Positions 2 to 20,048 of a stretch of 64,000 nt of DNA are shown here, in pieces (position 1 is the first letter of the stretch; each line of letters starts with the position of its first letter). The notes beneath the pieces were generated by a model. The model did not search any database. It saw only the letters and a list, made by a program, of their open reading frames with translations, and had not been told where the DNA came from. The translations under genes were made by a program, and so were the position numbers. This DNA is from Parcubacteria group bacterium GW2011_GWB1_42_6 (lineage in GTDB: Bacteria; Patescibacteriota; Minisyncoccia; Portnoybacterales; GWB1-42-6): the NCBI GenBank assembly GCA_000997475.1, contig LCEC01000001.1, positions 375 to 64,374 on the forward strand. Direction: 5' to 3'.

Positions 2-775
2 GTGATGCAGTCCGCTTTCGGGCAAACTTCCTCTTCGCTTTACTTCCAGCGCTTTGTCAAACACATTGAAGAAATTCTGACCGCGCCGCTTTCGTATTTG
101 GAGATGATTATCGGATATGTGGTGGCCGGAATTTTGCGGGGGCTTAAAGATGTTTTGCCCGAAATCGATGTTTTTGGAATCGAGCCGTCCATTGAAGAAT
201 CCGATTTTGCCAATCAAAAAGGCGTGAAAACCGAGACGACGCTTTTTGAAAATTTCAACGCCAAAAAATCGCGCCGGTTCGCGGCGATTTTTTGTATCCA
301 GAGCTTGAATCATTTGCTTGATCCCAAAAAGTTTTTCGATTGGTGCTTTGAAAATCTCGAGCCGGAGGGTTGTTTGGTTTTGGCGGTAAAAAATTTCCGC
401 GGCCAATGCCGCCGAGCCGGTTCCGTTTGGCGGGCCGCGCAAGTTGACCATCCTTTTATGTTTGTTCCCGAAACTCTCAAACTTTTTACGGAATCGGCCG
501 GATTCGAAATAATTTATTTTGACGTTGATGAATGGAAAAGCGCCAAAGAATTGCGGCTCCAGAAAGAAAAAGGAATTTCTTGCCACCACATAAGGCTTAT
601 CGCCAGAAAGAAAAAAGAAAAAGAATCCGTTTTGAACGTAACGGGCGGAAAAAACTGTCGGTCATCGCGTTTTTGGCTTTCTCCTTTGGCGCTCAAGATA
701 TTTTATTACCCGCTTTACGCCAATAAAACAAAATTTTTAAAAAAAATTTATGGCCGGATCAAAAATGGATTTTAA
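2..775 (+). CDS. Class I SAM-dependent methyltransferase, C-terminal part (5' end lies outside the window)
   Basis: ORF runs from the window edge. Methyltransferase-fold residues (LEPEGCLVLAV..) are present, and it sits directly upstream of the NeuB-like gene. Confidence 0.45.
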   Translation: MMQSAFGQTSSSLYFQRFVKHIEEILTAPLSYLEMIIGYVVAGILRGLKDVLPEIDVFGIEPSIEESDFANQKGVKTETTLFENFNAKKSRRFAAIFCIQSLNHLLDPKKFFDWCFENLEPEGCLVLAVKNFRGQCRRAGSVWRAAQVDHPFMFVPETLKLFTESAGFEIIYFDVDEWKSAKELRLQKEKGISCHHIRLIARKKKEKESVLNVTGGKNCRSSRFWLSPLALKIFYYPLYANKTKFLKKIYGRIKNGF

Positions 776-1832
776 TTTCAGCGGCAATCGCGTTTTTATC
801 ATCGCCGAAGCGGGCAAAAATTTCATCCAAACCCGGGAAGAAAAAACGTCCGAGGAATATTTGGCCAATGCCAAAGAATTGATCAGGCTGGCCTATGAAG
901 CCGGAGCCGACGCGGTGAAATTCCAAACCCACAATTTGGATGATGAGCAATTTGAAACGAATATAACTTCGCCCCATTTTTTAGGCAGCGATCGGTATAA
1001 TTGGATAAAACGCAATGATCGGGCGGCAACGATTGATTTTTGGAAAGAGTTAAAAGCTTTCGCGGATGAATTGGGCATAATATTTTTTTCCACTCCCATG
1101 AGCCGGGGAGCGGCCGTAAAATTGGAAGAAATCAATGTGCCGCTTTGGAAAGTCGGTTCGGGCGATATTCTTGATTTTGTGATGCTTGATTATTTGGCGC
1201 AAACGAAAAAACCGATAATTCTTTCTTCGGGGATGAGCACTTTGGAAGAAGTCGATCGGGCGGTGGAATTTTTGAAAAAAAGGGAATCCAAAATCGCGCT
1301 TTTGCATTGCGTTTCGCGTTATCCTTGTCCGCCCGACGAGCTCAATCTTAAGACTATAGAATTCTTTAAAAATCGCTACAAAGCGCCGATCGGTTTTTCG
1401 GATCACTCAATCGGCTTTGAAACGGTTTTGGCGGCCGTGGAGCTGGGAGCGGTTATAATAGAAAAGCATTTTTCATTGAGCCGCGATCTGTGGGGAGCGG
1501 ATCACAAAGTTTCCATGACTCCGGATGAATTTGAACAAATGGTCAAGGCCGCGCGCAAAACGCAGGCTTCCAAATTGACAAACTTGGGCTCAACGGATAA
1601 GCTTCTACAAGACGAAGAAGTCGTTTTCAGGCCGATTTTCCGCAAAATTTTGCGCGCCAGCCGCGATTTGAAAGAAGGGGAAATTTTGGAAAAAAACGAT
1701 ATCTACGCGATGAGGCCCCAAGAAGACGCCCAAGACGGGCTGCCTTCCGAAGATTACGAAAAAGTTTTGGGTAAAAAATTGAAAAGAGACATAAAAAAAT
1801 ACGATCCGATTTCTCGGGATGTTATTTTTTAA
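750..1832 (+). CDS. NeuB-family nonulosonic acid synthase (N-acetylneuraminate / legionaminic / pseudaminic acid synthase-like), copy 1
   Basis: N-terminal VFIIAEAGKNF..AVKFQTH motif typical of NeuB/PseI/LegI TIM barrel, with a C-terminal SAF-like segment; 360 aa. Confidence 0.8.
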   Translation: MAGSKMDFNFSGNRVFIIAEAGKNFIQTREEKTSEEYLANAKELIRLAYEAGADAVKFQTHNLDDEQFETNITSPHFLGSDRYNWIKRNDRAATIDFWKELKAFADELGIIFFSTPMSRGAAVKLEEINVPLWKVGSGDILDFVMLDYLAQTKKPIILSSGMSTLEEVDRAVEFLKKRESKIALLHCVSRYPCPPDELNLKTIEFFKNRYKAPIGFSDHSIGFETVLAAVELGAVIIEKHFSLSRDLWGADHKVSMTPDEFEQMVKAARKTQASKLTNLGSTDKLLQDEEVVFRPIFRKILRASRDLKEGEILEKNDIYAMRPQEDAQDGLPSEDYEKVLGKKLKRDIKKYDPISRDVIF

Positions 1833-3068
1833 TATTATGGAACAGCCAAAAAGAAAAAAAATATTGATTCCCATTTTAAACCGCGCCCACTACGGGCGTT
1901 TAAGGTCGGTTTTGAAAGCTGTCAACGACCATCCAAAACTCGAGCTGATGATTCTGGTCGCTTCTCCGCTGGCTTATAGCAGTTTTTTTTTAAATCTCAA
2001 ACACAGCCGGCCGGCTTTGAAAGGGCAGGCTTTGCGTTGGTATTTAAAAGCTCGTTTTCTCTCTTGGGCGGGAAAATTGAATCCCCGATTTTTAATCAAT
2101 AAAGATTTTTTGATAAAAAGCATTCTTGACGACGGGTTTCCCATTTACAGCCGCGTCCCTTTTTTCATAGACGGCGGATCATCCGTTTCCATGGCCAAAT
2201 CGGTCGGTTTCGGACTAATAAAACTGGCCGATGAATTTAACAGGCTGAAGCCCGATGCGGTTTTCGTGAATGCCGACAGATTTGAAATGATGGCGGTGGC
2301 GTTGGCGGAGCCGGTGACGTGAGCGGAACGATTGACGAAAGCGTCAGGCACGCCATTACGAAACTCGCTCAAATCCATTTCACTTCAACCCAAGCCAGCC
2401 GCAACCGCGTCATTCAAATGGGTGAAAACCCCCAAACCGTTTTCGCGGTCGGTTCGCCCTCAATCGATATAGTCAAAAATCTCGATTTGGACGCGCTTCC
2501 CAAAATTTTGCCGCCGGGTTTTCAAATCAAAGACCCCTATCTTTTGGTGGTTTTCCATCCGGTGGCTACGGAAAGTTCGCAAAAAAATATTGCTTTGACC
2601 GAAAATATTTTGAAAGCGGTTGAAAATATGGCGATGCCCGCTATTTTTTTGGGATCCAATATTGACGGCGGTTCCAAAGAAGTCGGTTTAATGGTGAAAA
2701 AATTTCTTTCCAAAAACTTGCCCTTCGTTCATTTTTACAAAACTTTGCCCCCGGATGATTTTTATCGTTTTTTGGCGGGCGCTTCCTGCGCCCTGGGCAA
2801 TTCGTCGAGCTTTATCAGGGAAGGCGCTTTTTTTGGCGCGCCGGCGGTTATTGTCGGATCGCGCCAGCAAAAAAGGGAGCGAGGAGAAAATATAAAAGAA
2901 GCCGGTTGCAAAGCCCAAGAAATAGAGAGAGCCGTGAAAGATCAGATCGCCCACGGACGCTTTGCTTCAAGTCTAATATTTGGTTCGGGGAAAGCCGGCG
3001 AACAAATCGCTCAAATTTTGGCCGAGACAAATCCTCCAATTCAGAAAACTTTTTTTGATCGGAGTTGA
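1819..3068 (+). pseudogene. UDP-N-acetylglucosamine 2-epimerase (hydrolysing) NeuC/LegG homolog, split by a frameshift plus a ~30-nt deletion near 2286-2322
   Basis: ORF 1819-2322 encodes the N-terminal half (..DAVFVNADRFEMMAVALA..). ORF frame +2, open from 2286, encodes the C-terminal half starting GGAGDVSGTIDESVRHAITKL, matching the conserved GGEVSGTIDE motif. About 11 residues of the active-site segment are missing between the two halves. Confidence 0.55.
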
Positions 3069-3117
3069 AATTCGCCTCATCCCCGGAGTTATTCGTAATT
3101 AACAGGAGAGAAGAAAC

Positions 3118-4572
3118 ATGAAAATTTTTTTAATCGGTTTTTCCAATGATATTTTCCGGGGCGTTGCCGAACAATTGGCCAAAGAACCGGATTTTGAAAT
3201 CGCTTATTGGACTTGCCGTTTTCCCGAAAAAGTTGACAGAACCAAGTTTCCCGAAGCGGTTATCCATTTTTCGGAAGACGCCATCAAGGGGATTCCGGCC
3301 CGCGATTTTAATGTTTTTGATTTTGAGCCTCTTGGCGAAGAATTGGCGGGCCAAATGTACGAATGCGAATCCCATGCCCTTACCATGATGAATCGAATGC
3401 ATTTTTCTTCTTCTTTGGGTGTTGATCAGCGAAAAAGAATATATTACGGCTATTTAAAATATTGGAACGGCATTTTGAAAAAATTTCAACCCGAAGCGAT
3501 TGTTTTTTCAACGATTCCCCATATGGGCTATGATTATGTTTTATACTGCTTGGCCAAAAATTTCGGCGTTAAAACTTTAATGTTTGATTTGACCAGAATT
3601 CCCGACAGGATTGTTCTGATGGATGATTTTAAAAAAGGGTTTCTTCCGTTAAAAAAATATTTGGCGGAAATGAAAAAAGACGTGAATTTGGCCGATCTGG
3701 ATGAAAAATTGCGAAATTATTATTCTCTTATGTCGGATAAAGAAAAAATTTATTATCCTCTTAATATCCCGACAGGATGGGAAAAGGCTTTAAAGAATAA
3801 AAGACGCGTAGTTCCTTCCGTTAAAATTAGATCTATTTTACGGGCCATAAAAAATAAAAATCTCGAAGAAAAATTGTTTGTCTTTCTTAATATTCTAAAA
3901 AGAAGAATATCGGTAAAAAAAATGGAAGAAGAATATTCGCGGCTGCAATTAAAACCCGATTTGAATAAAAAATTCATCTATTTTCCATTGCACGTCCAAC
4001 CTGAATGCACCACGTCTCCCTTGGGCGGAATTTTCGCCGATCAATTGCTCGTCGTTGAAATGTTGGCAAAAGCGCTGCCCGAGGATTGGCTGATTTATGT
4101 TAAGGAGCACAAATTTCAGCTGGTTAGAACGGCCGGGGGATACGCCAGATTCCCAAATTATTACAAATTTTTGACAAACCTCAAGAATGTCAATCTGGCG
4201 CCTATGAATTTTTCGAGCAATGAATTGATTTTAAAATCGCAGGCGGTAGCCACCATCACCGGCAGCGCCGGCTGGGAAGCTCTTTTTAGAGAGAAACCGG
4301 TTTTGGCGTTTGGTTATCCGGTTTATCAATTTTGCGACGGCGTTTTCCGCGTTTCAAACTTTAAAGAATGCCAAGAAGCGATTTTGGCCATTGTTAAAGG
4401 ATTCGCGCCTGACAAGCAAAAGGTGCTGAATTTTTTATCCGCTCTTAACGGAAGCGCGATAAAAGCCAATTTGAACTGCGGAGATTCCAAGGAAATTCGT
4501 CTTTCCGAAGACGCGAACATAAAAAATATTTCCGAAGCGATTCATAATCATTTATTTAAAAATCATGTTTAA
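3118..4572 (+). CDS. Capsule-polysaccharide biosynthesis family protein (KpsS/KpsC-like), putative nonulosonic-acid/Kdo-type transferase
   Basis: C-terminal motif TITGSAGWEALFREKPVLAFGYPVYQ resembles the Capsule_synth TVNSxxGxEAL..GKPV..G..Y signature; 484 aa, between NeuC-like and NeuB-like genes. Confidence 0.4.
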   Translation: MKIFLIGFSNDIFRGVAEQLAKEPDFEIAYWTCRFPEKVDRTKFPEAVIHFSEDAIKGIPARDFNVFDFEPLGEELAGQMYECESHALTMMNRMHFSSSLGVDQRKRIYYGYLKYWNGILKKFQPEAIVFSTIPHMGYDYVLYCLAKNFGVKTLMFDLTRIPDRIVLMDDFKKGFLPLKKYLAEMKKDVNLADLDEKLRNYYSLMSDKEKIYYPLNIPTGWEKALKNKRRVVPSVKIRSILRAIKNKNLEEKLFVFLNILKRRISVKKMEEEYSRLQLKPDLNKKFIYFPLHVQPECTTSPLGGIFADQLLVVEMLAKALPEDWLIYVKEHKFQLVRTAGGYARFPNYYKFLTNLKNVNLAPMNFSSNELILKSQAVATITGSAGWEALFREKPVLAFGYPVYQFCDGVFRVSNFKECQEAILAIVKGFAPDKQKVLNFLSALNGSAIKANLNCGDSKEIRLSEDANIKNISEAIHNHLFKNHV

Positions 4573-5578
4573 AAAAAATTCTGTTTTTATTATCGCCGAG
4601 GCGGGAATCAACCATAACGGTGATTTGGAAACCGCCGAGAAAATGGTTTTGGCCGCCAAAAAATGCGGCGCTGATGCCATAAAGTTTCAGTCATTGAAAG
4701 CCGAAGAGTTGATTATCGAAGAAGCGGGCAAGGCCGAACATATAAAAGGGAAGCAAAGCTTTTTCGAGATGATAAAAAGCTGGGAACTTTCCGAGAATGA
4801 TTATAAAAAGCTGGCTGATTTTGCCAAGAAAGAAGGAATAATTTTTTTCGCTTCGGTTTTCGGAAAGCAATCGCTTAATATTATGAAAAAAGCAGGAATG
4901 CCGCTTTATAAAATCGCTTCTTGCGATCTGAATAATCATTTTTTGCTTAAAGAAGTCGCTAAAACCAGAAAGCCGGTGATTATTTCCACGGGCATGGGCG
5001 ATATTAAAGAAATAAAAGAGGCGGTTAAAATTTTGGAAAAAGGGTCAAAAAAAATAGGCATTTTGCATTGCGTTTCTTTGTATCCGCCCGAGGCCCAAGA
5101 ATTGAATTTGCAGAGAATTCAATTGTTGGAAAAAATTTTTCCAAAATACGTTATTGGCTATTCGGATCACACCCTGGATATTTTGGCGCCCGCGGCGGCT
5201 GTCGCGCTGGGAGCGAATATAATCGAAAAGCATTTTACCTTGGATAAAAATATGCCCGGTCCCGATCAGCCAAGTTCCGCCGATCCCGCGGAATTTAAGA
5301 AAATGATTGAACAAATCAGATTTCTGGAAAAGGCGATTAACCGAGCCGAGAAAAACATTTTGCCCGGAAAACGCGAAAGCGAGATGAGGAAAATTTTTCG
5401 CCGAAGCTTGGTGGCCAACGAAGAGATTGCAGGGGGTTCTATAATTACGGCGGCCAAGCTTGGAATAAAAAGACCGGGAACAGGCATTCCTGCTTCACAA
5501 ATTGAGAAGGTAATCGGCAAAAAAGCCAAAAGAAATTTAGAAAAAAACACAATTTTGAAATTTGGCGATTTAATTTAG
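4565..5578 (+). CDS. NeuB-family nonulosonic acid synthase, copy 2
   Basis: VFIIAEAGINHNGDLETAEKMVLAAKKCGADAIKFQ motif and a C-terminal SAF-like domain; overlaps the upstream stop by 8 nt (translational coupling). Confidence 0.8.
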   Translation: MFKKNSVFIIAEAGINHNGDLETAEKMVLAAKKCGADAIKFQSLKAEELIIEEAGKAEHIKGKQSFFEMIKSWELSENDYKKLADFAKKEGIIFFASVFGKQSLNIMKKAGMPLYKIASCDLNNHFLLKEVAKTRKPVIISTGMGDIKEIKEAVKILEKGSKKIGILHCVSLYPPEAQELNLQRIQLLEKIFPKYVIGYSDHTLDILAPAAAVALGANIIEKHFTLDKNMPGPDQPSSADPAEFKKMIEQIRFLEKAINRAEKNILPGKRESEMRKIFRRSLVANEEIAGGSIITAAKLGIKRPGTGIPASQIEKVIGKKAKRNLEKNTILKFGDLI

Positions 5579-5579: not shown

Positions 5580-6554
5580 ATGCAAATCGACGCGATTGGG
5601 AAAGTGAACAAAGATAATTATAAGCTGTTTCGGGACGGCAGTCTTTCGGGTTACGAAATTTATTTGGCCTCGGAAGACGATTTTGTTTTTTTGCCGGAGA
5701 TGTTGAAAGCTCTCAATATTGTTTCGGCGCATCAGCCCGGCCGGGGATTTAACTTGTGCCAAGAAGGAGAAATTGGTTGTTGGTCTTTTCAGACAATGGA
5801 AAAAATGCTGGCTGTTCTTAAGTCATGCGGCTACAAAGGGATCATAGTTATTCACGGCAATAATTTTGACGAATCGTCGCAAAATAGAGACGAATGCATG
5901 AAATTGCTGGCTGGGCGGCTGGATAAACTTAATAAAATTTCCGGCAAAATAAGAATCAGTCTGGAAACCGATGTTTTATTTTTTAATTTAATCGGGGCAA
6001 AAAGAGCTTTGCTCGCTTTGCCGGAAAATTTTAAGTTATTGACGAGTTTTATGAAATCTCCGCTTTTAATGACACTTGACTTCGAGCATATCTGGATAAC
6101 GTCGTTTTTTGCGGGATTTATCAAAGAACTGCCGGAATTTTATAAAGAATTCGATTTGATGGGCGATTCGGAAAAAGAGCTTGTCAAAAAGTCTTGGTTG
6201 AGCTATACCAAAGAGAAACTGAACGAGGCAGATCGGATAGTCGGGGAATCTCTAAAAAGATATTCAGAGACGAAAATTCCCATAATTAATTTTCATATCA
6301 ACGGCACGAATCCCGAAAAATATTGGTTCGATGAGAAAACTTTTTTGCCGCTTGAAGGCGAGCATCTTTGTTTGGGAGAGCCAGATGATAAATTGGATTA
6401 CGGTTTGATCGGCGAATATTTGCCAAGATTAACCCAGGAAGATTCGGCTAATCTTGTCATGGAAATCTGGCCTCGCGGAGCTTCCGATCGGGAATATTTT
6501 GAAAAATCTCTTGAATCGGCCGGATATCTTGAGAAAAAACTATGCCAAGCCTAA
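5580..6554 (+). CDS. Hypothetical protein, possibly a TIM-barrel sugar isomerase/epimerase-like
   Basis: 324-aa ORF within the cluster; weak resemblance only (IVVIHGNNF.., ISLETD). Confidence 0.3.
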   Translation: MQIDAIGKVNKDNYKLFRDGSLSGYEIYLASEDDFVFLPEMLKALNIVSAHQPGRGFNLCQEGEIGCWSFQTMEKMLAVLKSCGYKGIIVIHGNNFDESSQNRDECMKLLAGRLDKLNKISGKIRISLETDVLFFNLIGAKRALLALPENFKLLTSFMKSPLLMTLDFEHIWITSFFAGFIKELPEFYKEFDLMGDSEKELVKKSWLSYTKEKLNEADRIVGESLKRYSETKIPIINFHINGTNPEKYWFDEKTFLPLEGEHLCLGEPDDKLDYGLIGEYLPRLTQEDSANLVMEIWPRGASDREYFEKSLESAGYLEKKLCQA

Positions 6555-7168
6555 AACGTAAAAAAATAATAATAATTGGAGCAAGCGAACATGGAAAAAT
6601 CGCTCTTAACATTCTTCGTTATCAGAAAAACCTCGAGTTTGCCGGTTTTTTGGACGATAATAAAATGGCGGACAAAGAAGTAATCGGAAAGGTTTTTGAC
6701 TGGCCTAAATACGCCAAATATTTTTTTCATTTGGCTATTGGCGATAATTCGATTCGCGAAAAATTCTTTAAGATTTTAAATAAAGGCAATTGCCGTTTTA
6801 TTAATTTAATTCATCCCAAAGCTTTTATTGAAAAAGACGTTGTTTTGGGAGAAAGTGTTTTTGCGGGCGCGAACGCGTATATTAATATTGGCTCCAGAAT
6901 CGGCTCCGGAACAATCATAAATAATGGTTGCAATGTGGATCACCATAATATTATAGGTGATTTTTGCCATCTGGCCCCGGGAGTGATTACCGGCGGCGGA
7001 GTCAAAATCGCCGCCGGCGTTTTTGTCGGCCTTAACAGTGCGATTCGCGACCACATTAAAATAGGCGAAAACAGCTTTATCGGCATGGGGAGCGTAATAA
7101 CGAAAAATATTGAGAAAAATCTTTTAGTTTATAATAGACTGGAAATGAAAATCAAGAAACTTTCATGA
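6542..7168 (+). CDS. Hexapeptide-repeat sugar N-acetyltransferase (NeuD/PglD/LegH-like)
   Basis: N-terminal Rossmann-like IIIIGASEHGK, then left-handed beta-helix hexapeptide repeats (GANAYINIGSRIGSGTIINNGCNVDHH..). Confidence 0.75.
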   Translation: MPSLKRKKIIIIGASEHGKIALNILRYQKNLEFAGFLDDNKMADKEVIGKVFDWPKYAKYFFHLAIGDNSIREKFFKILNKGNCRFINLIHPKAFIEKDVVLGESVFAGANAYINIGSRIGSGTIINNGCNVDHHNIIGDFCHLAPGVITGGGVKIAAGVFVGLNSAIRDHIKIGENSFIGMGSVITKNIEKNLLVYNRLEMKIKKLS

Positions 7169-13475: not shown

Positions 13476-14690
13476 ATGAAATATTGCGAAAGGTGCGTTT
13501 ATCCAAAAGTCTCGGTAAATCTTGAATTGGACAGCGAGGGAGTTTGTTCAAGTTGCCGAACTTTTGAAAAATTCAAAGCAACCCCTTCCCAAATATGGGA
13601 AAAAAAGAAAAAAAAGTTTGAAGAAATTATCGCCAATTCCAAAAAAAGCGGCGTTTCCAATTATGACTGCGTTATTCCCGTTAGCGGCGGCAAAGACAGT
13701 TATTTTCAAGCGCATGTGATAGTTTCCGAATTTGGCTTGAAACCCTTGCTTGTAACTTATCATGGCAATAATTACCTGCCCGAAGGAGATTATAACCGCG
13801 ACAGGATGCGCCAAGTATTTGATGCCGATCATCTTGTTTTCGGTCCAAGCGTCGAGGTCTTGAAAAAACTCAACAGAATTGGTTTCAAGAAAATGGGAGA
13901 TATGAATTGGCACGCTCATTGCGGCATTGTCACTTATCCGATAATCGCCGCGGTTAAATTCAATATTCCGCTTATTATTTGGGGAGAGGTCGCGTGGGAT
14001 ATTTCGGGAATGTTTGATCCGGACGATTTTGTGGAGTTTAGCGCGCGGGTGCGTCACGAACATTATGTGAGAGGCTATGAATGGAGCGATATGGTAAATA
14101 ATGATCCCAAAGACAGATTAACCGAAAAAGATATGCTTTGGGCCAAATATCCTTCCGATGAAGAAATCTTGAAGGTTGGCGCGAGGGGATTATATATAGG
14201 AAATTTTTTCCGATGGGATCCCAATAATCATGTAAAATTGGTTCAGAAAAAATACGGGTGGAAGGCTAAAGAAGGACAGTTTGAAAGAACTTATCGCAAA
14301 TTTTCCAATTTGGATGACAGATACGAAAATGGCGCGCACGATCTGATGAAATTCATAAAATTCGGCTATGGCCGAGCTTCCGATCACGCCTCCAAAGATA
14401 TCCGCGACGGTTATATGACTCGCGAGCAAGGAGTAGCAATGGTAAAAAAATATGATCATGTGATTTCAAAAGATCTTTATTATTGGCTTGAGTATGTCGG
14501 TATGAGCGAGAAAGAATTTTGGCGCATAGCCGATACTTTCAGGGATCCTCGGGTTTGGCGGATTGAGAGCGGCCAATGGGTGAAAGATAATATCTGGGGC
14601 GGTTCATCAGCTTATGGGCCGGTTCATCTGAATGTTAAACAAATTAAAGCTTATAAAGAACGCCAGAAAAAGATAAATCGGATAATTTAA
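13476..14690 (+). CDS. N-acetyl-sugar amidotransferase (WbuX/PseA/WbpG family, PP-loop ATPase)
   Basis: N-terminal zinc-binding CERC..CSSC followed by the PP-loop SGGKDS; 404 aa. Confidence 0.75.
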   Translation: MKYCERCVYPKVSVNLELDSEGVCSSCRTFEKFKATPSQIWEKKKKKFEEIIANSKKSGVSNYDCVIPVSGGKDSYFQAHVIVSEFGLKPLLVTYHGNNYLPEGDYNRDRMRQVFDADHLVFGPSVEVLKKLNRIGFKKMGDMNWHAHCGIVTYPIIAAVKFNIPLIIWGEVAWDISGMFDPDDFVEFSARVRHEHYVRGYEWSDMVNNDPKDRLTEKDMLWAKYPSDEEILKVGARGLYIGNFFRWDPNNHVKLVQKKYGWKAKEGQFERTYRKFSNLDDRYENGAHDLMKFIKFGYGRASDHASKDIRDGYMTREQGVAMVKKYDHVISKDLYYWLEYVGMSEKEFWRIADTFRDPRVWRIESGQWVKDNIWGGSSAYGPVHLNVKQIKAYKERQKKINRII

Positions 14691-14700: not shown

Positions 14701-16230
14701 ATGAAAATCTCTCTCATTGTGAGCGCCGATATCACCGACAGCTACGGCTTCAACGTTTTGGCGGCGCAGCTTAAAAAATTCAAAGACAGAAACGTCGAGG
14801 TTGGGCAGTTTTATATTTTTTACGATTTCAACAAATCCTATCCGCCCGAAGCGATTGAGGATTTGGTTTCTTTGTGCCGAGGGAGCGATCTTATCGGCAT
14901 TTCGCTGCTTTCCAGCGCTTTCAAAAATTCCGTCGCGATTACCAAAGCTCTGAAAGAGAAAATAAATTGTCCCGTAATCTGGGGCGGCAAACATCCCACG
15001 GCTGATCCGGAAGAATGCGTCAGGTATGCCGATATGATTTGTTTGAGCGAAGGAGAAGACGCGCTTTGCGAACTGGTGGAGAGAATGCTGGAAAACAAAT
15101 CTTACGATGATATCCAAAATCTTTGGGTGAGAAAAGGCGATTGGATAATCAAGAATCCGTTAAGGCCGGTGGAGGAAAATTTGGATCGTTTTCTGCCGCC
15201 CGATTATTCTCTGGAAAACAAATTTGTTTTGGACAAAAAAACTTTGCGCATTCGGCCGATCGAAGATCGCGATCTGGAGAATATGCGTTTGTGGTATCCC
15301 ACGATGATGACGCGGGGATGCCCCAATTGCTGCACTTTTTGCACCAACAGCACCGATCTGCGTTTGCGAAAAATGCGTTCGCGCGGGCTGGATAATGTTT
15401 TTGGCGAAATCAAAATTTTTTTGAAAAAATATCCGGACACAAAAAGGATTTTTTTCCGCGACGATTGCATCAGCGCGATGCCTCTTGATTTCATCAAAGA
15501 ATTCTGCCGGCGGTGGAAAGAGGAAATCAATTTGCCTTGCAGCTGTTCGGGAGTGATCGCGACCAGCCCGGATTTTGAGGAAAAAATAAAATTGCTCACT
15601 GATGCCGGATTCACCGGTCTGAAAATGGGAATACAATCGGGTTGCGAAAGAGTGCGCCGGTTTGTTTTTGCCAGAGTCGGCGAAACCGATGAAGTGATTA
15701 TGAAGGCGGCGAGAATTCTGCGAAAATGGGCCCACGGCAAGAATTGTTATTATATGATCACCGATAATCCTTATGAATCGGAAGAAGAATTGGTTCAATC
15801 AATAAGATTCACCAGCCGCGTGCCGCGCCCTTTTTCTTTATCCCTTTATTCTCTCAATTTCTATCCCGGCACCGCGATTTACAATCGGGCCATAAACGGC
15901 GGGATTATAAAAGACAAAGAGCAGGCGCTTCAGGAATCAACCATGGATTTTAAAGACACTTATTTGGGCCGGGTTTTCCTTTTGCTCCGTTTTTTCGAAC
16001 TTCCGCCTTTCTTTGTGAATTTTTTGACGAACAAGAAAATTTATTCCAATAAAATTTACCGAAAATCATTCAATCTGTTTTTTTGGTTTCTTTGCCGGAG
16101 TAAATTGCCCACCCGATGGATAAGGGCGCCCAGGCTCAAAGATCCCGACACTTGGGAAATTATCAGATGGATTGTCTGGCAGGGCATTGAACGCGCAAGC
16201 CGCTGCTATCACCGGCGCTTTGTGAAATAA
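14701..16230 (+). CDS. B12-binding domain radical SAM protein
   Basis: N-terminal cobalamin-binding-like Rossmann segment (LIGISLLSS..CPVIWGGKHPT), then the CxxxCxxC cluster in MMTRGCPNCCTFC. Confidence 0.75.
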   Translation: MKISLIVSADITDSYGFNVLAAQLKKFKDRNVEVGQFYIFYDFNKSYPPEAIEDLVSLCRGSDLIGISLLSSAFKNSVAITKALKEKINCPVIWGGKHPTADPEECVRYADMICLSEGEDALCELVERMLENKSYDDIQNLWVRKGDWIIKNPLRPVEENLDRFLPPDYSLENKFVLDKKTLRIRPIEDRDLENMRLWYPTMMTRGCPNCCTFCTNSTDLRLRKMRSRGLDNVFGEIKIFLKKYPDTKRIFFRDDCISAMPLDFIKEFCRRWKEEINLPCSCSGVIATSPDFEEKIKLLTDAGFTGLKMGIQSGCERVRRFVFARVGETDEVIMKAARILRKWAHGKNCYYMITDNPYESEEELVQSIRFTSRVPRPFSLSLYSLNFYPGTAIYNRAINGGIIKDKEQALQESTMDFKDTYLGRVFLLLRFFELPPFFVNFLTNKKIYSNKIYRKSFNLFFWFLCRSKLPTRWIRAPRLKDPDTWEIIRWIVWQGIERASRCYHRRFVK

Positions 16231-16287: not shown

Positions 16288-17247
16288 ATGAAAATTCTAA
16301 ACGCAATCGGCAAAGAATTCAGCCTTTCGGCCAAACCTATTCTTGAAAAAGCGGGAGAAGTCGATTATTTGAATTTGGCGCAGGATGAATTTGAGGAAAA
16401 AATTGTCTCTTACGACGCTGCTGTTTTGGGATTAGGCTTGAATTTGAACGAAGAAGTTTTGCGGAAAGCCAAGAATCTGAAAGTGATTGCCACAGCCACC
16501 ACGGGTTTGGATCATATTGATTTAAAAACAGCCCAAGAAAAAGGAATCGAAGTTTTGAGCTTGAAAGGCGAAGAAGAATTTTTAAAAACCATCGCGGGAA
16601 CGGCCGAACTGGCTTTTGGATTGCTTATCGATCTTTCCAGAATGGTTTCAGCCGGCTTTGAATCGGTAAAAAAAGGCGAGTGGGATCGCGAAAAATTCAG
16701 GGGACATAATCTGCGAGGCAAAACTTTGGGAATTTTGGGTTTGGGCCGGCTTGGGCAAATGATGGCCAAATACGGTTTGGCTTTCGGTATGCGCGCAATC
16801 GCTTGCGATCCTTATGTTAAAAAGGAATCTTTCAGCGATTCCGGCTGCCGGCGCGTTGATTTTGAAACTTTGCTCAAAGAGAGCGATGCCGTTTCAATCC
16901 ACGTCCATTTGAGCGAAAAAACGGAAGGTCTTTTTTCAAAAGAATCTTTTGAAAAAATGAAAGACGGGGCGCTTTTAATAAACACCTCAAGGGGGAAAAT
17001 AGTAAATGAGGAAGATTTAATCCAATTTTTAAAAAACGGCAAGATTGGGGGATACGCGGCTGATGTATTGACAAATGAGCTTAAATTTGGTAAAAAGTTT
17101 GAAAGCGATCCGTTGGTTGAATGCGCCAAAAACGGCCAAAATGTCATAATCACTCCGCATATCGGCGGAATGACCTATGAATCGAGGGAAGCCACGGATA
17201 TGTTTATTTCTCAAAAATTGCTTGATTATGTCCAAAATAACGAATAA
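16288..17247 (+). CDS. D-isomer-specific 2-hydroxyacid dehydrogenase (NAD-binding)
   Basis: GKTLGILGLGRLGQ dinucleotide-binding motif and the catalytic-domain pattern of the D-2-hydroxyacid dehydrogenase family. Confidence 0.75.
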   Translation: MKILNAIGKEFSLSAKPILEKAGEVDYLNLAQDEFEEKIVSYDAAVLGLGLNLNEEVLRKAKNLKVIATATTGLDHIDLKTAQEKGIEVLSLKGEEEFLKTIAGTAELAFGLLIDLSRMVSAGFESVKKGEWDREKFRGHNLRGKTLGILGLGRLGQMMAKYGLAFGMRAIACDPYVKKESFSDSGCRRVDFETLLKESDAVSIHVHLSEKTEGLFSKESFEKMKDGALLINTSRGKIVNEEDLIQFLKNGKIGGYAADVLTNELKFGKKFESDPLVECAKNGQNVIITPHIGGMTYESREATDMFISQKLLDYVQNNE

Positions 17248-17962
17248 AAAGAAAAAAGTTTTGGGAATTATTCCGGCCAGAGGCGGCTCCAAAGGAATTC
17301 CCGGCAAAAACATAAAAAATTTTTGCGGCAAGCCCCTGCTCGCCCATATTTTTGAGGCGGCCAAGAATTCCGGAGTGTTTGACCGGATAATCGTTTCCAC
17401 GGATGACGAAAAAATCGCTCAAGTTGCCAAAAAATGCGGCGCCGAAGTCCCGTTCATTCGTCCGGCCCGACTCGCTCAAGACAAAACTCCCACTTTGCCC
17501 GTGATTCAACACGCCGTAAATTATTTAAAAGAAAATGAAAATTATAACCCCGATTATGTGATGATTTTGCAGCCCACCGTTCCCTTGACGCAGTCCAGGC
17601 ATTTGAAAGAGGCGGTTGAACTTATTTTGAATAAAAAAGCGGATACGGTTTTGAGCGTTGCCGAAATTCCCGAGAGTTTTAATCCTTGCAACGCGATGGT
17701 TCTGGATGAGGGATTCTTAAAGCTTTATAACGGCTTGCCGGTCCGCCAAAGAATTCCCCGCCGCCAAGACAGGCCGCAAACTTTTTGGAGCATCGGTTGC
17801 ATTTATCTTTTTAGAACCGATCTGATTTTTGATCAGAAAGAACCTTCTTTTTACGGCAATAAAATTTTGCCATATATTTTGGAAAAAGAATGCATTTGCG
17901 ACATCAATACGCCGGAAGATTGGGATATCGCCGCAAAGTCTTATAAAAAATTGAGAAAATAG
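17228..17962 (+). CDS. CMP-nonulosonic acid synthetase (acylneuraminate cytidylyltransferase), copy 2
   Basis: VLGIIPARGGSKGIPGKNI..GKPLLAHIFEAA; the ORF-track entry begins at 17177 but the likely start is MSKIT at 17228. Confidence 0.75.
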   Translation: MSKITNKKKKVLGIIPARGGSKGIPGKNIKNFCGKPLLAHIFEAAKNSGVFDRIIVSTDDEKIAQVAKKCGAEVPFIRPARLAQDKTPTLPVIQHAVNYLKENENYNPDYVMILQPTVPLTQSRHLKEAVELILNKKADTVLSVAEIPESFNPCNAMVLDEGFLKLYNGLPVRQRIPRRQDRPQTFWSIGCIYLFRTDLIFDQKEPSFYGNKILPYILEKECICDINTPEDWDIAAKSYKKLRK

Positions 17963-18046
17963 AAAATTATTATTTTTTCTCCGGGAATAAACGGAGAATT
18001 AGGGGTTAATACTTTTATTGTTTCTCTTTCGATTATTCCCGGAGCT

Positions 18047-18640
18047 TTGTTCGACAGATTTATTTTTGGCCATTGTCTCAAATTGAGGCAATGGTTTGGA
18101 ATATTTGTTGCGATAATCGCTGGATATTCCATTCTGCAATGGCCGTCTTTAAAACAATTGCTGAAGATGCCATTATGGATTTGGCTCTCATCCGTTGTAT
18201 CTTTAAGTATGGCGATTGGCCAGTTGATCACTCAGAGAATAAAGGATATCGAAATCTTTCGCAATAATTTTTGGGCGGGAATAACTACATTTACGCTAAA
18301 CTTCTTTTTTCTTTATGCGATGGATTCTTTAGGCCTCCTTAAAAATTTTTCCGAGCCGATGAGATTTTTATGGCTGTTTTCATTACTTATTGGGGTTATA
18401 TTCATCGGAAGCTGGTCATTTAATCTGATGGCTTACAAAAATGAAGCTTATATCGCTCTGAAGAAATTAACGATGAATGGGATTTATTTGACGTTAACCA
18501 TGGCAGCTGGAGTAATTTTCTTCGGGGAGTCATTAAGCGTCGGAAAGATTTTGGGAGTTGTTCTTTTTTTTGTTGCTTTTGTTCTTGTTGATGAAAAAAC
18601 TTGGAATTTTTTCCGTCGGTGGTCAGATAATCAAAGTTGA
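18047..18640 (+). CDS. Small EamA/DMT-like membrane protein (possible lipid-linked sugar flippase subunit)
   Basis: Multi-TM protein with EamA-like C-terminus FFGESLSVGKILGVVLFFVAFVLV. Confidence 0.4.
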   Translation: MFDRFIFGHCLKLRQWFGIFVAIIAGYSILQWPSLKQLLKMPLWIWLSSVVSLSMAIGQLITQRIKDIEIFRNNFWAGITTFTLNFFFLYAMDSLGLLKNFSEPMRFLWLFSLLIGVIFIGSWSFNLMAYKNEAYIALKKLTMNGIYLTLTMAAGVIFFGESLSVGKILGVVLFFVAFVLVDEKTWNFFRRWSDNQS

Positions 18641-18643
18641 GAA

Positions 18644-18677
18644 AATAAAAAACCTCGCTTGCAAGCGAGGTTTTTAA
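18644..18677. terminator. Bidirectional rho-independent terminator between convergent genes
   Basis: A-run, hairpin cctcgcttg/caagcgagg, then T-run. Confidence 0.7.
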
Positions 18678-18698
18678 ATATTGAAATAAGATATAATC

Positions 18699-20048
18699 CT
18701 ATCTTCCCCCTCCGCTCAAAACCGTTTTTACCGTCTTGAGAATTATCGCCGCTTCCAAAAACAAGGAGCGGTTTTTTATATAATATAAATCGTATTGAAG
18801 TTTTTGAAGAGTATCCTTGATTGAAGAGCCATAAGGATATTTTATCTGCGCCCAGCCGGTGAGTCCCGGTTTGATGGTGTGGCGGATTTGATAAAACGGG
18901 ATTTCGGAAAGTATTTCATTGGAGAAAGCAAACTCCGGGCGTTCCGGCCGCGGACCCACGAAAGACATGTCGCCTTTTAAGATATTCCAAAGCTGGGGAA
19001 GTTCATCAAGGCGCGTTTTGCGCAAAAAATTTCCCACTCGGGTTATTCGGCCGTCGTTTTTTTTGGCCCATTGGGCGCCGTTTTCTTCCGCGTTTTTAAT
19101 CATTGAGCGAAATTTTACGACTTCAAAAATTTTATTGTCCTGGCCCACTCTTTTTTGAGAATAAAAAATGGGACCGGAGCTGTCCAGTTTTATGGCCAGC
19201 GCTATAAACGGATAAAGAATCAGTGCGATAATTCCGCCCAAGATTGAAGCAATCATGTCAAAGACTCTTTTAACCGCCTCAAAGACGATTTTTTTTCCGG
19301 TCATCAAATTTTCCAGAAACCAAACTTCTTCGATCGCGGAAACCGGAACTTTGCCCGTGATTTTTTCGTAGAAACTGGGAAGATCCGCCAGAGTGATTTT
19401 AAGCGGTATGCATTGATAAAGATTGCGCACGAGCTCGCTGTTTTTGTGCGGATTGACGCTTGTGATAATCACCTGTATTCTGTCTTGGGCAATCACGTGC
19501 GTAAGATCATAAAGGATTTCCACTTCATTGGGTTCGACTATTTTTTTGATTCGATAGCCAAGCTGCGGGCTGTCATTGATGTATCTGATCAGTTCTTTGG
19601 CTTCTTGGCTTTGGCCGATGACCAGAACATTATTAAGCAGGGCTCGGCTTCTGATAAAACGGTTGAAAAATTGCCGCCAAGCGACGAATAAAACGGCGAA
19701 AATCAAAAGGTTTATGAAAAGATTGGTTTTGGGAGTAACCTTGAAAAAAGGAAAAAAATAAAAGAAAATTATCGCCAGTCCCGCGTCTATGGCCAGAACC
19801 TTGGCCAGAGTGATGAAAAAATAAAGATTATTGCGCGCCATGCTGATTTCGTAAAGCCCGATGATATAAAAAGCCAGAATCCAGAAAGCGTAAATAATGG
19901 AAAAGGGAAAAAAATGTTCCTGCCATTGAAGAGAGCAGTTTTGGCCGTAACGCAAAACAAGCGTTGCCAGGAGCGCCAGATATAGGATCGCGATATCCCC
20001 CGCGACCAATATGAAAACTTTTATCCTGCCAAGCAATGTGCTCATCAT
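18699..20048 (-). CDS. Polyprenyl-phosphate glycosylphosphotransferase (bacterial sugar transferase, WbaP/PglC-like initiating enzyme)
   Basis: Multi-TM N-terminus and C-terminal domain ..[35 protein letters not shown] typical of Bac_transf. Confidence 0.8.

Follow-up and report, generated by a model that had tools for sequence, protein, structure and literature searches.

A Parcubacteria nonulosonic-acid locus with two putative synthesis modules, one carrying a rare TIM-barrel protein beside NeuB

The 64,000-nucleotide stretch of DNA analysed here (the window) carries, between positions 2 and 17962, 19 tightly packed genes, all on the + strand, that form a nonulosonic-acid (NulO) system. This cluster of ~19 kb is real and is predicted to make and attach sialic-acid-like nine-carbon sugars. 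From sequence comparison, we infer that the locus combines two modules that evolved separately and have a candidate transferase each: a Parcubacteria-wide module 1 (NeuB1–NeuC–CMP–dehydrogenase) and a rare module 2 (KpsS-like–NeuB2–TIM–PglD–CMP–aminotransferase–dehydratase). One synthesis branch would possess a rare uncharacterised enzyme at the place of the usual sugar-releasing enzyme. Positions 2-20048 likely represent most of a glycan locus on the chromosome of a Parcubacteria bacterium (Patescibacteria/CPR), and we have good confidence in the overall reading in which two branches deliver CMP-NulOs onto a lipid-linked surface glycan, a TIM-barrel protein replacing NeuC or PseG in one of them. 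The host is a groundwater Parcubacteria with a tiny genome. HMMs, as well as exact protein matches in two MAGs, Parcubacteria group bacterium GW2011_GWB1_42_6 and GWC1_43_12, bear out the core of the first-pass annotation, which had recognized, in a CPR/Patescibacteria genome, a cluster for NulO biosynthesis and transfer. The operon structure it proposed is likewise supported, with 9 of 17 gene junctions overlapping, a widest gap of 57 nt and the same gene order kept in five independent assemblies. The locus extends ~4 kb further, upstream of the window. At its other end, the + strand cluster is closed by a hairpin terminator (18648..18675; 12-bp stem, T/A runs on both sides, from a terminator scan) and a phosphoglycosyltransferase gene in convergent orientation, the hairpin being a putative bidirectional terminator-like site ending both the cluster and the convergent gene.

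One argument for two modules comes from the paired synthases and synthetases. NeuB1 (750..1832; PF03102 244 bits, E 2.5e-72) and NeuB2 (4565..5578; PF03102 276 bits, E 4.3e-82), both with a SAF domain, share 34.8% identity and fall in separate clades of the NeuB tree (100% bootstrap each), and the CMP-nonulosonate synthetases CMP1 (7187..7867; CTP_transf_3, NeuA/LegF/PseF family) and CMP2 (17228..17962; CTP_transf_3 106 bits) share 34%. These NeuB/NeuA pairs are not simple duplicates and would come from two separate modules. The families named in the first-pass annotation hold for all four genes: DAHP-synthase models give ~20-27 bits on the NeuBs, NeuA structures outscore KdsB for CMP1 (80 versus 34 bits) and CMP2 (127 versus 51 bits), and neither the NeuB-like nor the cytidylyltransferase genes were assigned to KdsA or KdsB.

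Regarding module 1, NeuB1-NeuC-CMP is present in five of the six relatives examined, with a 2-hydroxyacid dehydrogenase gene following it in three of those. NeuB1 has >100 homologues (58-86% identity), from Patescibacteria for the most part, its clade joins Neisseria meningitidis NeuB at 68%, and a fusion of NeuB1 with Epimerase_2 exists (P0015). The D-2-hydroxyacid (PGDH-like) dehydrogenase of the window (16288..17247; 2-Hacid_dh_C 183 bits; PGDH model 236 bits, below its cut-off) has counterparts following the CMP gene in loci L088 and L093 and in JGI contig htyeaYRZ, and is a conserved partner of NeuB1-NeuC-CMP modules. Directly upstream of NeuB1 lies MT0 (2..775; Methyltransf_23, E 9.7e-11), a class-I SAM methyltransferase whose 5' end is lost at the window edge; it has 337 aa in siblings, is full-length in L001 and L003, and is 90% identical to its siblings, adjacent genes being 99-100% identical.

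The NeuC/LegG-like hydrolysing UDP-HexNAc 2-epimerase (1819..3068) was correctly placed by family in the first-pass annotation, Epimerase_2/TIGR03568 matching both halves, but it is not an intact gene. Alignment with L001, L002 and L005 shows that 34 bp are deleted after position 2308; the deletion shifts the frame, removes the IPIAHNE motif and leaves two ORFs (1819-2322 and 2319-3068). In three otherwise identical assemblies NeuC is whole (427 aa, 321 bits versus a cut-off of 236), and the truncated 167-aa product recurs in the independent run SRR29904083. Judged from these sequences, the NeuC copy of the window is a pseudogene, and the pathway, formerly described as full, is therefore not intact in this copy. 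Branch 1 would consist of NeuC, NeuB1 and CMP2, with the 2-hydroxyacid dehydrogenase and MT0. It would be knocked out in the window strain by the deletion, branch 2 alone being expected to function. Candidate transferases for branch 1 would be encoded by TagB/BFO_1060-like genes that lie immediately before the start of the window; the three upstream genes in L003 give weak TagB-like matches, and the TagB-like BFO_1060/Tanf_01245 are Pse/Leg transferases (PMC5420450).

Module 2 is delineated by loci L006 and L007, which have in common the KpsS-like protein, NeuB2, TIM, PglD, CMP1, the aminotransferase and the dehydratase, and in which NeuC was not found. NeuB2 clades with the TIM-linked NeuBs of L006, L007, L086 and L087 (100% bootstrap), and the loci closest to that of NeuB2 come from Patescibacteria MAGs. 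TIM (5580..6554, 324 aa) is assigned by fold and context to a NeuB-coupled family of xylose-isomerase/Endo-IV-like TIM-barrels that is very rare, with 61 representatives among 1.84 billion proteins. It adjoins NeuB in L006, L007, L086, L087 and L096 and is fused to NeuB in P0135 and P0136, and neither NeuC nor PseG occurs within +/-10 kb of TIM-NeuB in the related loci examined. Since TIM always stands beside or fused to NeuB in loci without NeuC or PseG, it is probably the source of the NeuB sugar substrate, a function deduced from context alone. TIM has an invariant His/Glu/Asp set on a TIM fold; when compared by sequence profile, TIM and E. coli Endo IV show no significant similarity, and among structural matches sugar epimerases are equally good. 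We propose that a metal-dependent TIM would replace NeuC or PseG and hand a free aldose to NeuB2, its activity possibly being that of a nucleotide-sugar or sugar-phosphate phosphoesterase, or of an aldose 2-epimerase.

Branch 2 would comprise TIM, NeuB2, CMP1 and the KpsS/KpsC-like (PF05159) glycosyltransferase (3118..4572). The latter, already noticed in the first-pass annotation, is a weak match to Capsule_synth (34 bits, cut-off 20) and matches the KpsC structure 6mgd at E 8.7e-4. Homologues border NeuB2-type modules in L006, L007 and L086, and in Acinetobacter PF05159 glycosyltransferases adjoining NulO modules are predicted NulO transferases (PMC4487303). The KpsS-like protein is hence a candidate CMP-NulO transferase for the NeuB2 module.

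HMM and homology also outline the predicted chemistry, for which the earlier assignments of dehydratase, aminotransferase and acetyltransferase hold. UDP-GlcNAc would be processed by a short, soluble Polysacc_synt_2 4,6-dehydratase (8982..9980; PF02719 337 bits, E 1.5e-100), a DegT-family PLP aminotransferase acting at C4 of the 4-keto-6-deoxy sugar (7864..8985; PF01041 416 bits, E 1.6e-124) and a PglD/NeuD-family hexapeptide N-acetyltransferase acting at N4 of the UDP-4-amino sugar (6542..7168; PglD_N and Hexapep; TIGR03570 196 bits, cut-off 161), giving a UDP-2,4-diacetamido-2,4,6-trideoxyhexose. The released hexose would be condensed with PEP by a NeuB-type synthase and activated with CTP by a NeuA-type enzyme. 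Only NeuD/PglD, WbuX, HisH and the phosphoglycosyltransferase reach the curated cut-offs of pathway-specific NCBIfam equivalogs; all other scores being below, substrate and stereochemistry are therefore deduced from gene content only.

The product was initially described as legionaminic/sialic-type, but these sequences do not discriminate between Leg, Pse, Neu and a so far undescribed isomer. NeuB1 and NeuB2 lie in neither the PseI clade nor that of classical Leg-context NeuBs. NeuB1 scores 276 bits with TIGR03569 (cut-off 400) and 235 with the PseI model (cut-off 340), and NeuB2 373 and 278 bits, respectively. Pse-pathway models score best for the dehydratase (PseB, 342 bits, cut-off 408), the aminotransferase (PseC, 331 bits, cut-off 424; LegC, 288 bits, cut-off 420), CMP1 (PseF, 164 bits, cut-off 206) and CMP2 (PseF, 201.7 bits, cut-off 205.7), yet all are below cut-offs. 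Among structures, the dehydratase is nearer to Pen (273 bits), PseB (267 bits) and CapE (258 bits) than to PglF, a retaining enzyme (162 bits), which agrees with a Pse-like or L-sugar route as well as with a Leg route; it keeps the STDK motif, with a Leu at the site of PseB Tyr141. PDB comparison of the aminotransferase (PglE 177, PseC 164 bits) does not discriminate. Alternatively to a shared route, branch 1 may use UDP-GlcNAc directly and yield a Neu5Ac-type sugar, in keeping with the single dehydratase/aminotransferase/acetyltransferase set of the locus.

Between the two CMP genes lie putative tailoring enzymes: a HisH/WbuY-like glutamine amidotransferase subunit (11017..11634; GATase; TIGR01855 232 bits, cut-off 105), a HisF/WbuZ-like cyclase-fold subunit, the ammonia channel partner in sugar amidation (11631..12437; His_biosynth 187 bits; WbuZ model 267 bits, cut-off 300; AglZ/HisF2 224 bits), and a WbuX/PseA/PtmG-family amidotransferase for acetamido to acetamidino conversion (13476..14690; TIGR03573 326 bits, cut-off 203), labelled 'N-acetyl sugar amidotransferase' in GenBank. 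By family precedents, this trio would convert an N-acetyl into an acetamidino group, which MT1 and MT2 would N-methylate. MT1 (9987..11015; Methyltransf_23 60 bits, weak Zn ribbon) and MT2 (12479..13471; Methyltransf_23 53.5 bits), both Zn-ribbon class-I SAM methyltransferases, are paralogous (46.5% identity over full length); the MT2 ORF opens at 12401, siblings start at ATG 12479, and a 330-aa gene is found in L001, L002 and L004. Such a group is present in Leg5AmNMe7Ac of Legionella and Campylobacter, with L. pneumophila ORF8, which adjoins neuB, and C. jejuni PtmH as precedents for N-methylation (PMC3766260). A further modification would be added by a B12-binding radical-SAM enzyme (14701..16230; B12-binding and Radical_SAM), a probable methyltransferase whose top NCBIfam match is HpnJ (83 bits, far below cut-off); several such genes stand alongside the TIM/NeuB2 modules of L006, L007, L086 and L087.

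Finally, the convergent polyprenyl-phosphate hexose-1-phosphate transferase (18699..20048, - strand; Bac_transf 233 bits; TIGR03025 383 bits, cut-off 296; five TM segments) is of the large WbaP/WcaJ type, as formerly proposed, and is predicted to initiate a lipid-linked glycan, its tie to the locus being proximity alone; in L088 and L095, too, the NeuB1 module has a Bac_transf gene in its neighbourhood. Together with the KpsS-like and TagB-like transferases, it implies a putative lipid-linked route, in which CMP-activated NulOs would be added onto a surface glycan, and decoration of a surface glycoconjugate is a reasonable view. The previously suggested EamA-like flippase has no support from HMMs: the sole membrane ORF (18047..18640, + strand; first ATG 18167), a small polytopic protein with 3 to 6 hydrophobic segments, has neither a Pfam match at E<=0.01 nor an NCBIfam match. 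It shares the reading frame of CMP2, from which a single TAG stop separates it, and is annotated in GenBank as a 157-aa hypothetical protein. Eight or nine genes of the region were absent from the first-pass annotation, namely the WbuX/HisH/HisF trio, three or four methyltransferases, the B12-radical-SAM enzyme, the 2-hydroxyacid dehydrogenase and the TIM barrel.

We infer that the nonulosonic acid (NulO) cluster is a composite of two modules and, as a working hypothesis for its function, that a NeuB-coupled TIM-barrel protein family occupies the place of NeuC or PseG in one of them. The two NeuB synthases that the first-pass annotation had recognized were confirmed by Pfam and NCBIfam scans as NeuB+SAF proteins at 750-1832 (NeuB1) and 4565-5578 (NeuB2), and the same scans bore out its two CMP-sugar synthetases, both CTP_transf_3 cytidylyltransferases (CMP1, 7187-7867; CMP2, 17228-17962), its DegT aminotransferase (7864-8985) and its 4,6-dehydratase, a Polysacc_synt_2 protein (8982-9980). 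The synthases share 35% identity and the CMP enzymes 34%. Relatives of NeuB1 form more than 100 database clusters at 58-86% identity, the named ones coming nearly all from Patescibacteria (CPR), Parcubacteria, Paceibacterota or Sungbacteria, and one family member is a NeuB+Epimerase_2 fusion. Six NeuB1 contexts were looked up singly, and a scan of metagenome contigs with NeuB1 gave two loci; NeuB, NeuC and CMP genes stand together in five of the six contexts, a 2-hydroxyacid dehydrogenase gene lies downstream of the CMP gene in half of them (3/6; with one methyltransferase gene between on the JGI contig htyeaYRZ) and three of the six (L088, L093 and L095) have a TagB-like gene ahead of the module. 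The window splits this module: the SAM methyltransferase gene MT0 (2-775), NeuB1 and NeuC lie at the 5' end of the cluster, the dehydrogenase and CMP2 genes at its 3' end, and the genes in between include a second module composed of a KpsS-like gene, NeuB2, the TIM-barrel gene (TIM), an acetyltransferase gene of the PglD type, CMP1, the aminotransferase and the dehydratase. At 43-74% identity this second module is matched only in a few Patescibacteria MAGs (L006 and L007), both without NeuC, and the nearest non-CPR relatives of NeuB2 are at most 46% identical and scattered over many phyla, including DPANN archaea. Our analysis shows that NeuB-NeuC-NeuA modules are widespread in Parcubacteria, that the lineage of the window adds a second, rare module onto the common one, and that the locus varies among co-existing strains.

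TIM (324 aa; 5580-6554, plus strand) gave a sub-threshold AP_endonuc_2 match only. Ten relatives were retrieved in a word-indexed search of 5.8 billion proteins, and a profile search of 1.84 billion cluster representatives returned 61 at E<=1e-3, including two TIM-NeuB-SAF fusions (P0135 and P0136) and one fusion to PIG-L, a de-N-acetylase. In every case with usable context the TIM gene abuts a NeuB gene, with the order NeuB-TIM-(PglD)-CMP in L006, L007, L086 and L087 and TIM followed by NeuB in L096, and no Epimerase_2 (NeuC) or PseG-type gene was found within +/-10 kb of these loci. As TIM and NeuC are distributed in a complementary manner, TIM is fused to NeuB in some proteins and L086 has NeuB-TIM-CMP as a minimal core, a role before NeuB is the most economical; TIM would perform the step directly before the synthase, a general assignment to which we give slightly less than even credence. 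TIM has the TIM-barrel fold of PF01261-type proteins, with candidate metal ligands at the C-terminal strand ends. Four histidines, two of them on early strands, are invariant in the family and, together with a D-x-x-H motif, they appear to follow the ligand order of Endonuclease IV (Endo IV), whose trinuclear-site ligands in E. coli we take to be H69, H109, E145, D179, H182, H216, D229, H231 and E261. TIM sits in the Endonuclease IV/xylose-isomerase-like superfamily (PF01261) without significant sequence similarity to E. coli Nfo: hhalign of the family against Nfo gave a non-significant probability of 0.15-4.5% (10-sequence alignment; 49-sequence alignment in global mode, 4.5%), so that the Endo-IV-like ligand pattern is only suggested. 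Moreover, Endonuclease IV acts in DNA repair, whereas TIM is found in a context of sugar biosynthesis and its family is fused to NeuB or PIG-L. Sugar epimerases of TIM-barrel fold use a single His. TIM could either free the hexose from its nucleotide or phosphate by phosphoesterase chemistry, or 2-epimerize a free N-acetylhexosamine by enolization chemistry. To our knowledge, all enzymes known as yet for the hexose-supplying step of NulO synthesis are of the NeuC/LegG, PseG or AGE type; the NeuB-coupled TIM family would be, if confirmed, a new enzyme solution to it, useful for the chemo-enzymatic synthesis of NulO analogues.

Regarding the sugar itself, a legionaminic/sialic type had been proposed at first, of which the nonulosonic part holds and the type is one of several possibilities. 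Among the ORFs in 1-24000 there was no glycosyltransferase-28-type (PseG) or GNAT-type (PseH) match, and the acetyltransferase is of the hexapeptide type; with a NeuC-type epimerase, a PglD-type acetyltransferase and no PseG or PseH, the gene content is predicted to follow Leg/Neu logic. The best models, in contrast, are those of the Pse pathway, all below their cut-offs: PseB for the dehydratase (342 bits, cut-off 408), PseC for the aminotransferase (331, cut-off 424) and PseF for both CMP enzymes (164 and 201.7, cut-off 205.7). As gene content and model scores thus disagree, we assign the locus to none of the Leg, Pse and Neu pathways. From its genes it would operate as a pathway to 5,7-diamino NulOs, perhaps with a side branch of the Neu5Ac type.

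How far this side branch extends is the main alternative. Both synthases were placed on a neighbour-joining NeuB tree (100 bootstraps; it took in no biochemically characterized LegI), which resolved four clades, each at 100% bootstrap: the NeuB1 family; the TIM-linked NeuB2 group; C. jejuni PseI with the NeuBs of dehydratase/aminotransferase loci devoid of NeuC; and the NeuBs of classical NeuC+PglD+aminotransferase+dehydratase loci. By this placement neither synthase of the window is predicted to be a PseI or to belong among the classical Leg-context enzymes, and the NeuB1 clade joins N. meningitidis NeuB (~32% identity) at 68%. This grouping is what one would expect if branch 1 (NeuC-NeuB1-CMP2) were a Neu5Ac-type pathway starting from UDP-GlcNAc and branch 2 (NeuB2-TIM-CMP1) alone made a 5,7-diamino NulO; NeuC, NeuB and NeuA suffice for CMP-Neu5Ac, three of the six NeuB1 relatives (L089, L095 and htyeaYRZ) have no Polysacc_synt_2 and DegT pair within ~9-10 kb of the module, and the counterparts of the window's dehydratase, aminotransferase and PglD genes accompany the NeuB2 module in L006. 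However, this node is weakly supported and joins two long branches, NeuB1 scores 276 bits against a cut-off of 400 for the NeuB model (TIGR03569), and the NeuB1 module does follow Leg-type logic in L088 and L093, where it comes with a dehydratase and an aminotransferase and, in L088, also with a WbuXYZ-like trio and an acetyltransferase of the hexapeptide type. We regard such a division as possible, though rather unlikely; if true, two chemically different NulO classes would be displayed by this strain family.

A second alternative gives the diamino branch a Pse-type (L-glycero-L-manno) product, with an inverting, PseB-like dehydratase and TIM as a non-epimerizing analogue of PseG. Besides the best models quoted, it draws on the dehydratase, whose closest solved relatives are Pen and PseB (PseB, Pen and CapE at 258-273 bits, PglF at 162), and on the two Polysacc_synt_2 genes of L006, the arrangement of the B. 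thuringiensis Pen/Pal route. For the aminotransferase, PglE-, PseC- and LegC-type enzymes were inseparable in a PDB search in which perosamine synthases scored highest. Yet every Pse model stays below its curated cut-off, PseG and a GNAT-type PseH are absent and the acetyltransferase is of the PglD/NeuD type. Moreover, the dehydratase, while retaining the T-D-K triad, has Leu at the position of PseB Tyr141 (Met in PglF and CapE), and NeuB2 falls outside the C. jejuni PseI clade (100% bootstrap) and scores higher with the NeuB model (373 bits) than with the PseI model (278; cut-off 340), which gives 235 bits for NeuB1. A Pse-type product is accordingly unlikely in our judgement.

The strain-level lesions bear on whether both branches are in use. 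The NeuC/LegG-like epimerase had been annotated as one gene at 1819-3068; its family is right, and the gene of the window is not intact but split in two (1819-2322 and 2319-3068). Alignment with three otherwise identical sibling assemblies (L001, L002 and L005) revealed a 34-bp deletion at 2308/2309 that takes out ...AAYLNIPIAHNE..., with loss of the IPIAHNE motif and a frameshift, while the intact allele encodes 427 aa and scores 321 bits with TIGR03568 (cut-off 236). The exact 167-aa truncated product was also found in an independent run, SRR29904083, in which one contig ends 36 nt past the truncation and another begins within the 3' half of NeuC, as would be expected if the deletion site is truly polymorphic in the population. 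Conversely, NeuC is intact in L002 (LCFJ01000006.1, GW2011_GWC1_43_12) and its TIM gene carries a frameshifting 73-bp deletion (L002:6067-6068, corresponding to 5814-5886 of the window) that removes the invariant H92, a lesion seen in one assembly only and possibly an assembly artefact. Both genes are intact in other assemblies. Neither the 34-bp nor the 73-bp deletion has flanking direct repeats, which gives no indication of slipped-strand phase variation. We propose that each lesion strikes the enzyme feeding one of the two NeuBs. Taken jointly, TIM would be an undescribed metal-dependent, Endo-IV-like family that replaces NeuC/LegG or PseG and passes a free N-acetylated hexose directly to NeuB, and co-existing Parcubacteria strains would switch between two surface NulOs by reciprocal loss-of-function deletions (NeuC in the window and GW2011_GWB1_42_6, TIM in GW2011_GWC1_43_12), a combined proposal that we advance tentatively and that, as a whole, is more probably wrong than right.

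The same deletions also fit a locus in which the NeuB/CMP pairs are redundant or one of them is decaying, a single NulO is made, and TIM tailors the finished sugar as an epimerase or isomerase; indeed, only one dehydratase/aminotransferase/acetyltransferase set is present. This explanation is nevertheless improbable, as both NeuB and both CMP genes are intact in modules that are conserved independently of one another and have a candidate transferase each, NeuC and PseG are consistently absent from TIM-carrying loci, the N-terminal fusion of TIM to NeuB in P0135 and P0136 points to consecutive steps, and L086 contains the minimal core NeuB-TIM-CMP.

Least credible by far, and rejected on scores and on the gene order common to five assemblies, are mis-assigned Kdo/DAHP-type genes (KdsA/KdsB), chance juxtaposition or a chimeric assembly: this would rest on marginal secondary matches to DAHP-synthase and KdsB models only, against NeuB model scores of 244-373 bits (DAHP models 18-27) for two proteins that each have a SAF domain, scores of 80 versus 34 and 127 versus 51 bits for the two cytidylyltransferases against solved NeuA structures and KdsB, respectively, and a GC content that is uniform over the cluster (0.39-0.44, the remainder of the window being similar). 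KdsA models gave no match, DAHP/Kdo-type models stay near 20 bits for the synthases, and KdsB models reach 35-64 bits where PseF/NeuA-type models reach 164-202; both CTP_transf_3 proteins are thus predicted CMP-NulO synthetases. Nor is operon structure missing. Plus-strand genes run unbroken from 2 to 17962 in the ORF listing, followed by a small membrane ORF ending at 18640, on which a minus-strand gene at 18699-20048 converges; 9 of 17 junctions overlap by 4-26 nt and the largest intergenic gap before 17962 is <=57 nt. A terminator scan placed a hairpin with a 12-bp stem and flanking T/A runs between the convergent gene ends (18648-18675), apart from which sigma-70 promoter and terminator scans stayed at background level, and an Rfam scan of the window found no RNA family. 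The five independent assemblies (NCBI, ENA and Logan) have identical gene order, and exact copies of the proteins are deposited under Parcubacteria group bacterium GW2011_GWB1_42_6 and GW2011_GWC1_43_12 (the latter on contig LCFJ01000006, L002) as well as in many ENA, JGI and Logan groundwater assemblies. With housekeeping genes elsewhere in the window (SecA, SecDF, AlaRS, MnmA, MurA and MurB), these copies and the shared order support the assignment to CPR and a chromosomal, non-chimeric cluster. MT0 (window 2-775; L001:145-1158) is only 90% identical to its siblings, the adjoining genes being 99-100% identical, and this divergence suggests that a boundary of recombination or of variation lies at the cluster's 5' end.

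Beyond the core pathway, the cluster contains several genes that the first-pass annotation had left unreported, namely TIM, MT0 and two further SAM methyltransferases (MT1, 9987-11015; MT2, 12479-13471), a WbuX-family N-acetyl-sugar amidotransferase (13476-14690, plus strand; 326 bits, cut-off 203), HisH and HisF/WbuZ-like partners (11017-12437, plus strand; HisH 232 bits, cut-off 105), and, from Pfam/NCBIfam and on the plus strand, a B12-binding radical-SAM enzyme (B12-rSAM; 14701-16230) and a PGDH-like 2-hydroxyacid dehydrogenase (16288-17247). The WbuX, HisH-like and HisF-like genes lie together within 11017-14690, the best model of the HisF-like protein being WbuZ, slightly below its cut-off (267 versus 300 bits). 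This is the three-protein set of the WbuX/WbuY/WbuZ (NCBIfam TIGR03573, TIGR03572 and a HisH-type subunit) and archaeal AglZ/HisF2 systems in one block; WbuX/WbuY/WbuZ acts on FucNAc, whereas the substrate here is presumed to be a nonulosonate, and the genes of two paralogous Zn-ribbon methyltransferases, MT1 and MT2, are interspersed in the block; the two proteins are 46.5% identical and their genes flank HisH/HisF. The 5-acetimidoyl group is N-methylated by the ORF8 methyltransferase of L. pneumophila, encoded beside neuB, and by PtmH of C. jejuni (PMC3766260). Based on the MT1/MT2 paralogues and this precedent, mono- or di-N-methyl-acetamidino NulOs are a reasonable prediction for the product. 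We only suggest that the 2-hydroxyacid dehydrogenase might supply an acyl group of the glyceroyl or lactyl type, comparable to that in Pse5Am7Gra of Tannerella forsythia. B12-rSAM genes occur at every TIM/NeuB2 locus (L006, L007, L086 and L087), one to three at each; L007 and L086 have further radical-SAM genes, and B12-rSAM genes are striking in small genomes not expected to make cobalamin. In two other Parcubacteria, a sulfotransferase gene and a fused ATP-sulfurylase/APS-kinase gene follow a NeuB1-NeuC-CMP-2-hydroxyacid-dehydrogenase module (L093:13847-17864; JGI htyeaYRZ:13654-17351), which hints at possible sulfated NulO glycans in these bacteria.

The core logic of the locus is that of the legionaminic acid loci for the L. 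pneumophila serogroup 1 O-antigen and C. jejuni flagellin (ptm/leg), with a dehydratase, an aminotransferase, a PglD-type acetyltransferase, a NeuC-type epimerase, a NeuB-type synthase and a CMP-transferase. The acetyltransferase expected at 6542-7168 proved to be PglD/NeuD (PglD_N and Hexapep domains; TIGR03570, 196 bits, above the cut-off of 161). The likeness extends to an amidotransferase of the WbuX/PseA/PtmG family and to SAM methyltransferases beside NeuB and beside the amidotransferase: in L. pneumophila the ORF8 methyltransferase adjoins neuB (ORF9), and C. jejuni has the amidotransferase PtmG/LegA and the methyltransferase PtmH (PMC3766260; PMC5378307). In contrast to these loci, that of the window has two NeuB/CMP pairs from different clades and a short dehydratase that is PseB/Pen-like, not of the PglF or LegB type; it is devoid of the GDP-sugar genes of the ptm locus (PtmE/PtmF/PtmA), of Maf proteins and of an O-antigen polymerase, it has HisH/HisF, the B12-radical-SAM enzyme, the 2-hydroxyacid dehydrogenase and the TIM-barrel protein in addition, and it belongs to a CPR bacterium, which has no outer membrane.

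Concerning transfer, the predicted KpsS-like transferase could be verified as a Capsule_synth (PF05159) domain in 3118-4572 (34.4 bits, cut-off 20); its gene overlaps the start of NeuB2, an arrangement repeated in L006, L007 and L086, and the protein is a candidate NulO transferase. For the PF05159 family (KpsS/KpsC-type, GT107-like), transfer of Pse, Aci and 8eLeg has been predicted in Acinetobacter and other bacteria, and in the A. baumannii capsule K-loci (psa/lga/aci; KpsS1, KpsS2, Gtr59) a PF05159 gene likewise adjoins the NulO module and a polyprenyl-phosphate initiating transferase is present at the locus (PMC4487303). The protein of the window is, however, weakly similar to those (34 bits; KpsC structure E ~1e-3), and Wzx, Wzy and Wza-c export genes are absent here, whereas relatives of the locus carry MsbA/PglK-like ABC exporter genes. 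A second kind of candidate transferase may lie upstream of the window, where the locus extends in the sibling assembly L003: three Glyphos_transf/TagB-like genes are arranged in tandem (L003:1082-5164, ~4 kb beyond the 5' edge of the window) between a gene of the transketolase/DXP-synthase family (PF00456/PF13292) and MT0, scoring 51-89 bits with the BFO_1060 model (cut-off 200). Knock-out and reconstitution showed that the BFO_1060 family is needed for Pse/Leg addition to the T. forsythia O-glycan, an S-layer glycan with Pse5Am7Gra or a Leg derivative as NulO and TagB-domain transferases (Tanf_01245, TFUB4_00887 and BFO_1060; PMC5420450). As in T. forsythia, TagB/Glyphos_transf-type genes are present, upstream of the window (L003) and of the NeuB1 modules in L088, L093 and L095; the T. 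forsythia NulO bears acetimidoyl and glyceroyl groups, and the PGDH-like dehydrogenase here could supply an acyl group of the latter type. T. forsythia has no pseA or ptmG homologue (PMC5378307), while WbuX is present in the window, where in turn no S-layer or O-oligosaccharyltransferase gene was identified.

The convergent gene at 18699-20048, annotated as a WbaP-like phosphoglycosyltransferase, is indeed a Bac_transf protein above the curated cut-off, which implies a probable assembly of the glycan on polyprenyl phosphate. No support was obtained for an EamA-like flippase: the sole membrane ORF (18047-18640, plus strand; 197 aa, ~3-6 hydrophobic segments, a hypothetical protein of 157 aa in the database) gave no Pfam or NCBIfam match even at E<=0.01, and EamA (PF00892) transporters usually have two domain copies and ten TM segments. 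The ORF (17963-18640) is in frame with CMP2 past a single TAG, without an ATG or RBS before 18167, and could be an N-terminally truncated remnant or use an unusual start. UGA or other stop-codon recoding at this junction was considered and rejected, as the stop is a TAG and the other genes read normally with table 11. On the far side of the locus, and divergent from the phosphoglycosyltransferase gene, 20123-21907 (plus strand) encodes a 594-aa secreted protein with a signal peptide, an HEFQH (HExxH) motif, a marginal match to MXAN_6640 metalloprotease and, at the C terminus, two repeats of 'LIRAExDYKVY'.

NulO clusters occur widely among bacteria and archaea, and most genes of this one have been named in GenBank, automatically, since 2015. 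NulOs are well known to mediate adhesion, recognition between cells and evasion of immunity or phages, and CPR/Patescibacteria are for the most part uncultured episymbionts of ultra-small size, with cell surfaces about which very little is known. In the literature searched, we found no paper linking NulOs (nonulosonic, legionaminic, pseudaminic or sialic) with CPR, Patescibacteria or Parcubacteria, and no description of NulO synthesis with a TIM-barrel, B12-rSAM or 2-hydroxyacid-dehydrogenase component. The common and rare modules and their strain variation are testable candidates for molecules that Parcubacteria present to hosts or phages; if neither the surface-molecule nor the TIM proposals hold, what is left is the annotation of a sugar-biosynthesis operon, correct but unremarkable. 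Elsewhere in the window, a polyamine module at 23747-26763 comprises pyruvoyl-dependent arginine decarboxylase, deoxyhypusine-synthase-family and arginase/agmatinase-family genes, with a ribosome hibernation factor gene just upstream, and 41175-43043 encodes a type IV coupling ATPase resembling TrwB/VirD4, with a treble-clef zinc finger, that may relate to DNA uptake or transfer. Finally, on another Patescibacteria contig (L094), a lone NeuB1-family gene lies beside greA, without NeuC or NeuA, and positions 19049-21125 encode a Cas12a (Cpf1)-like protein.
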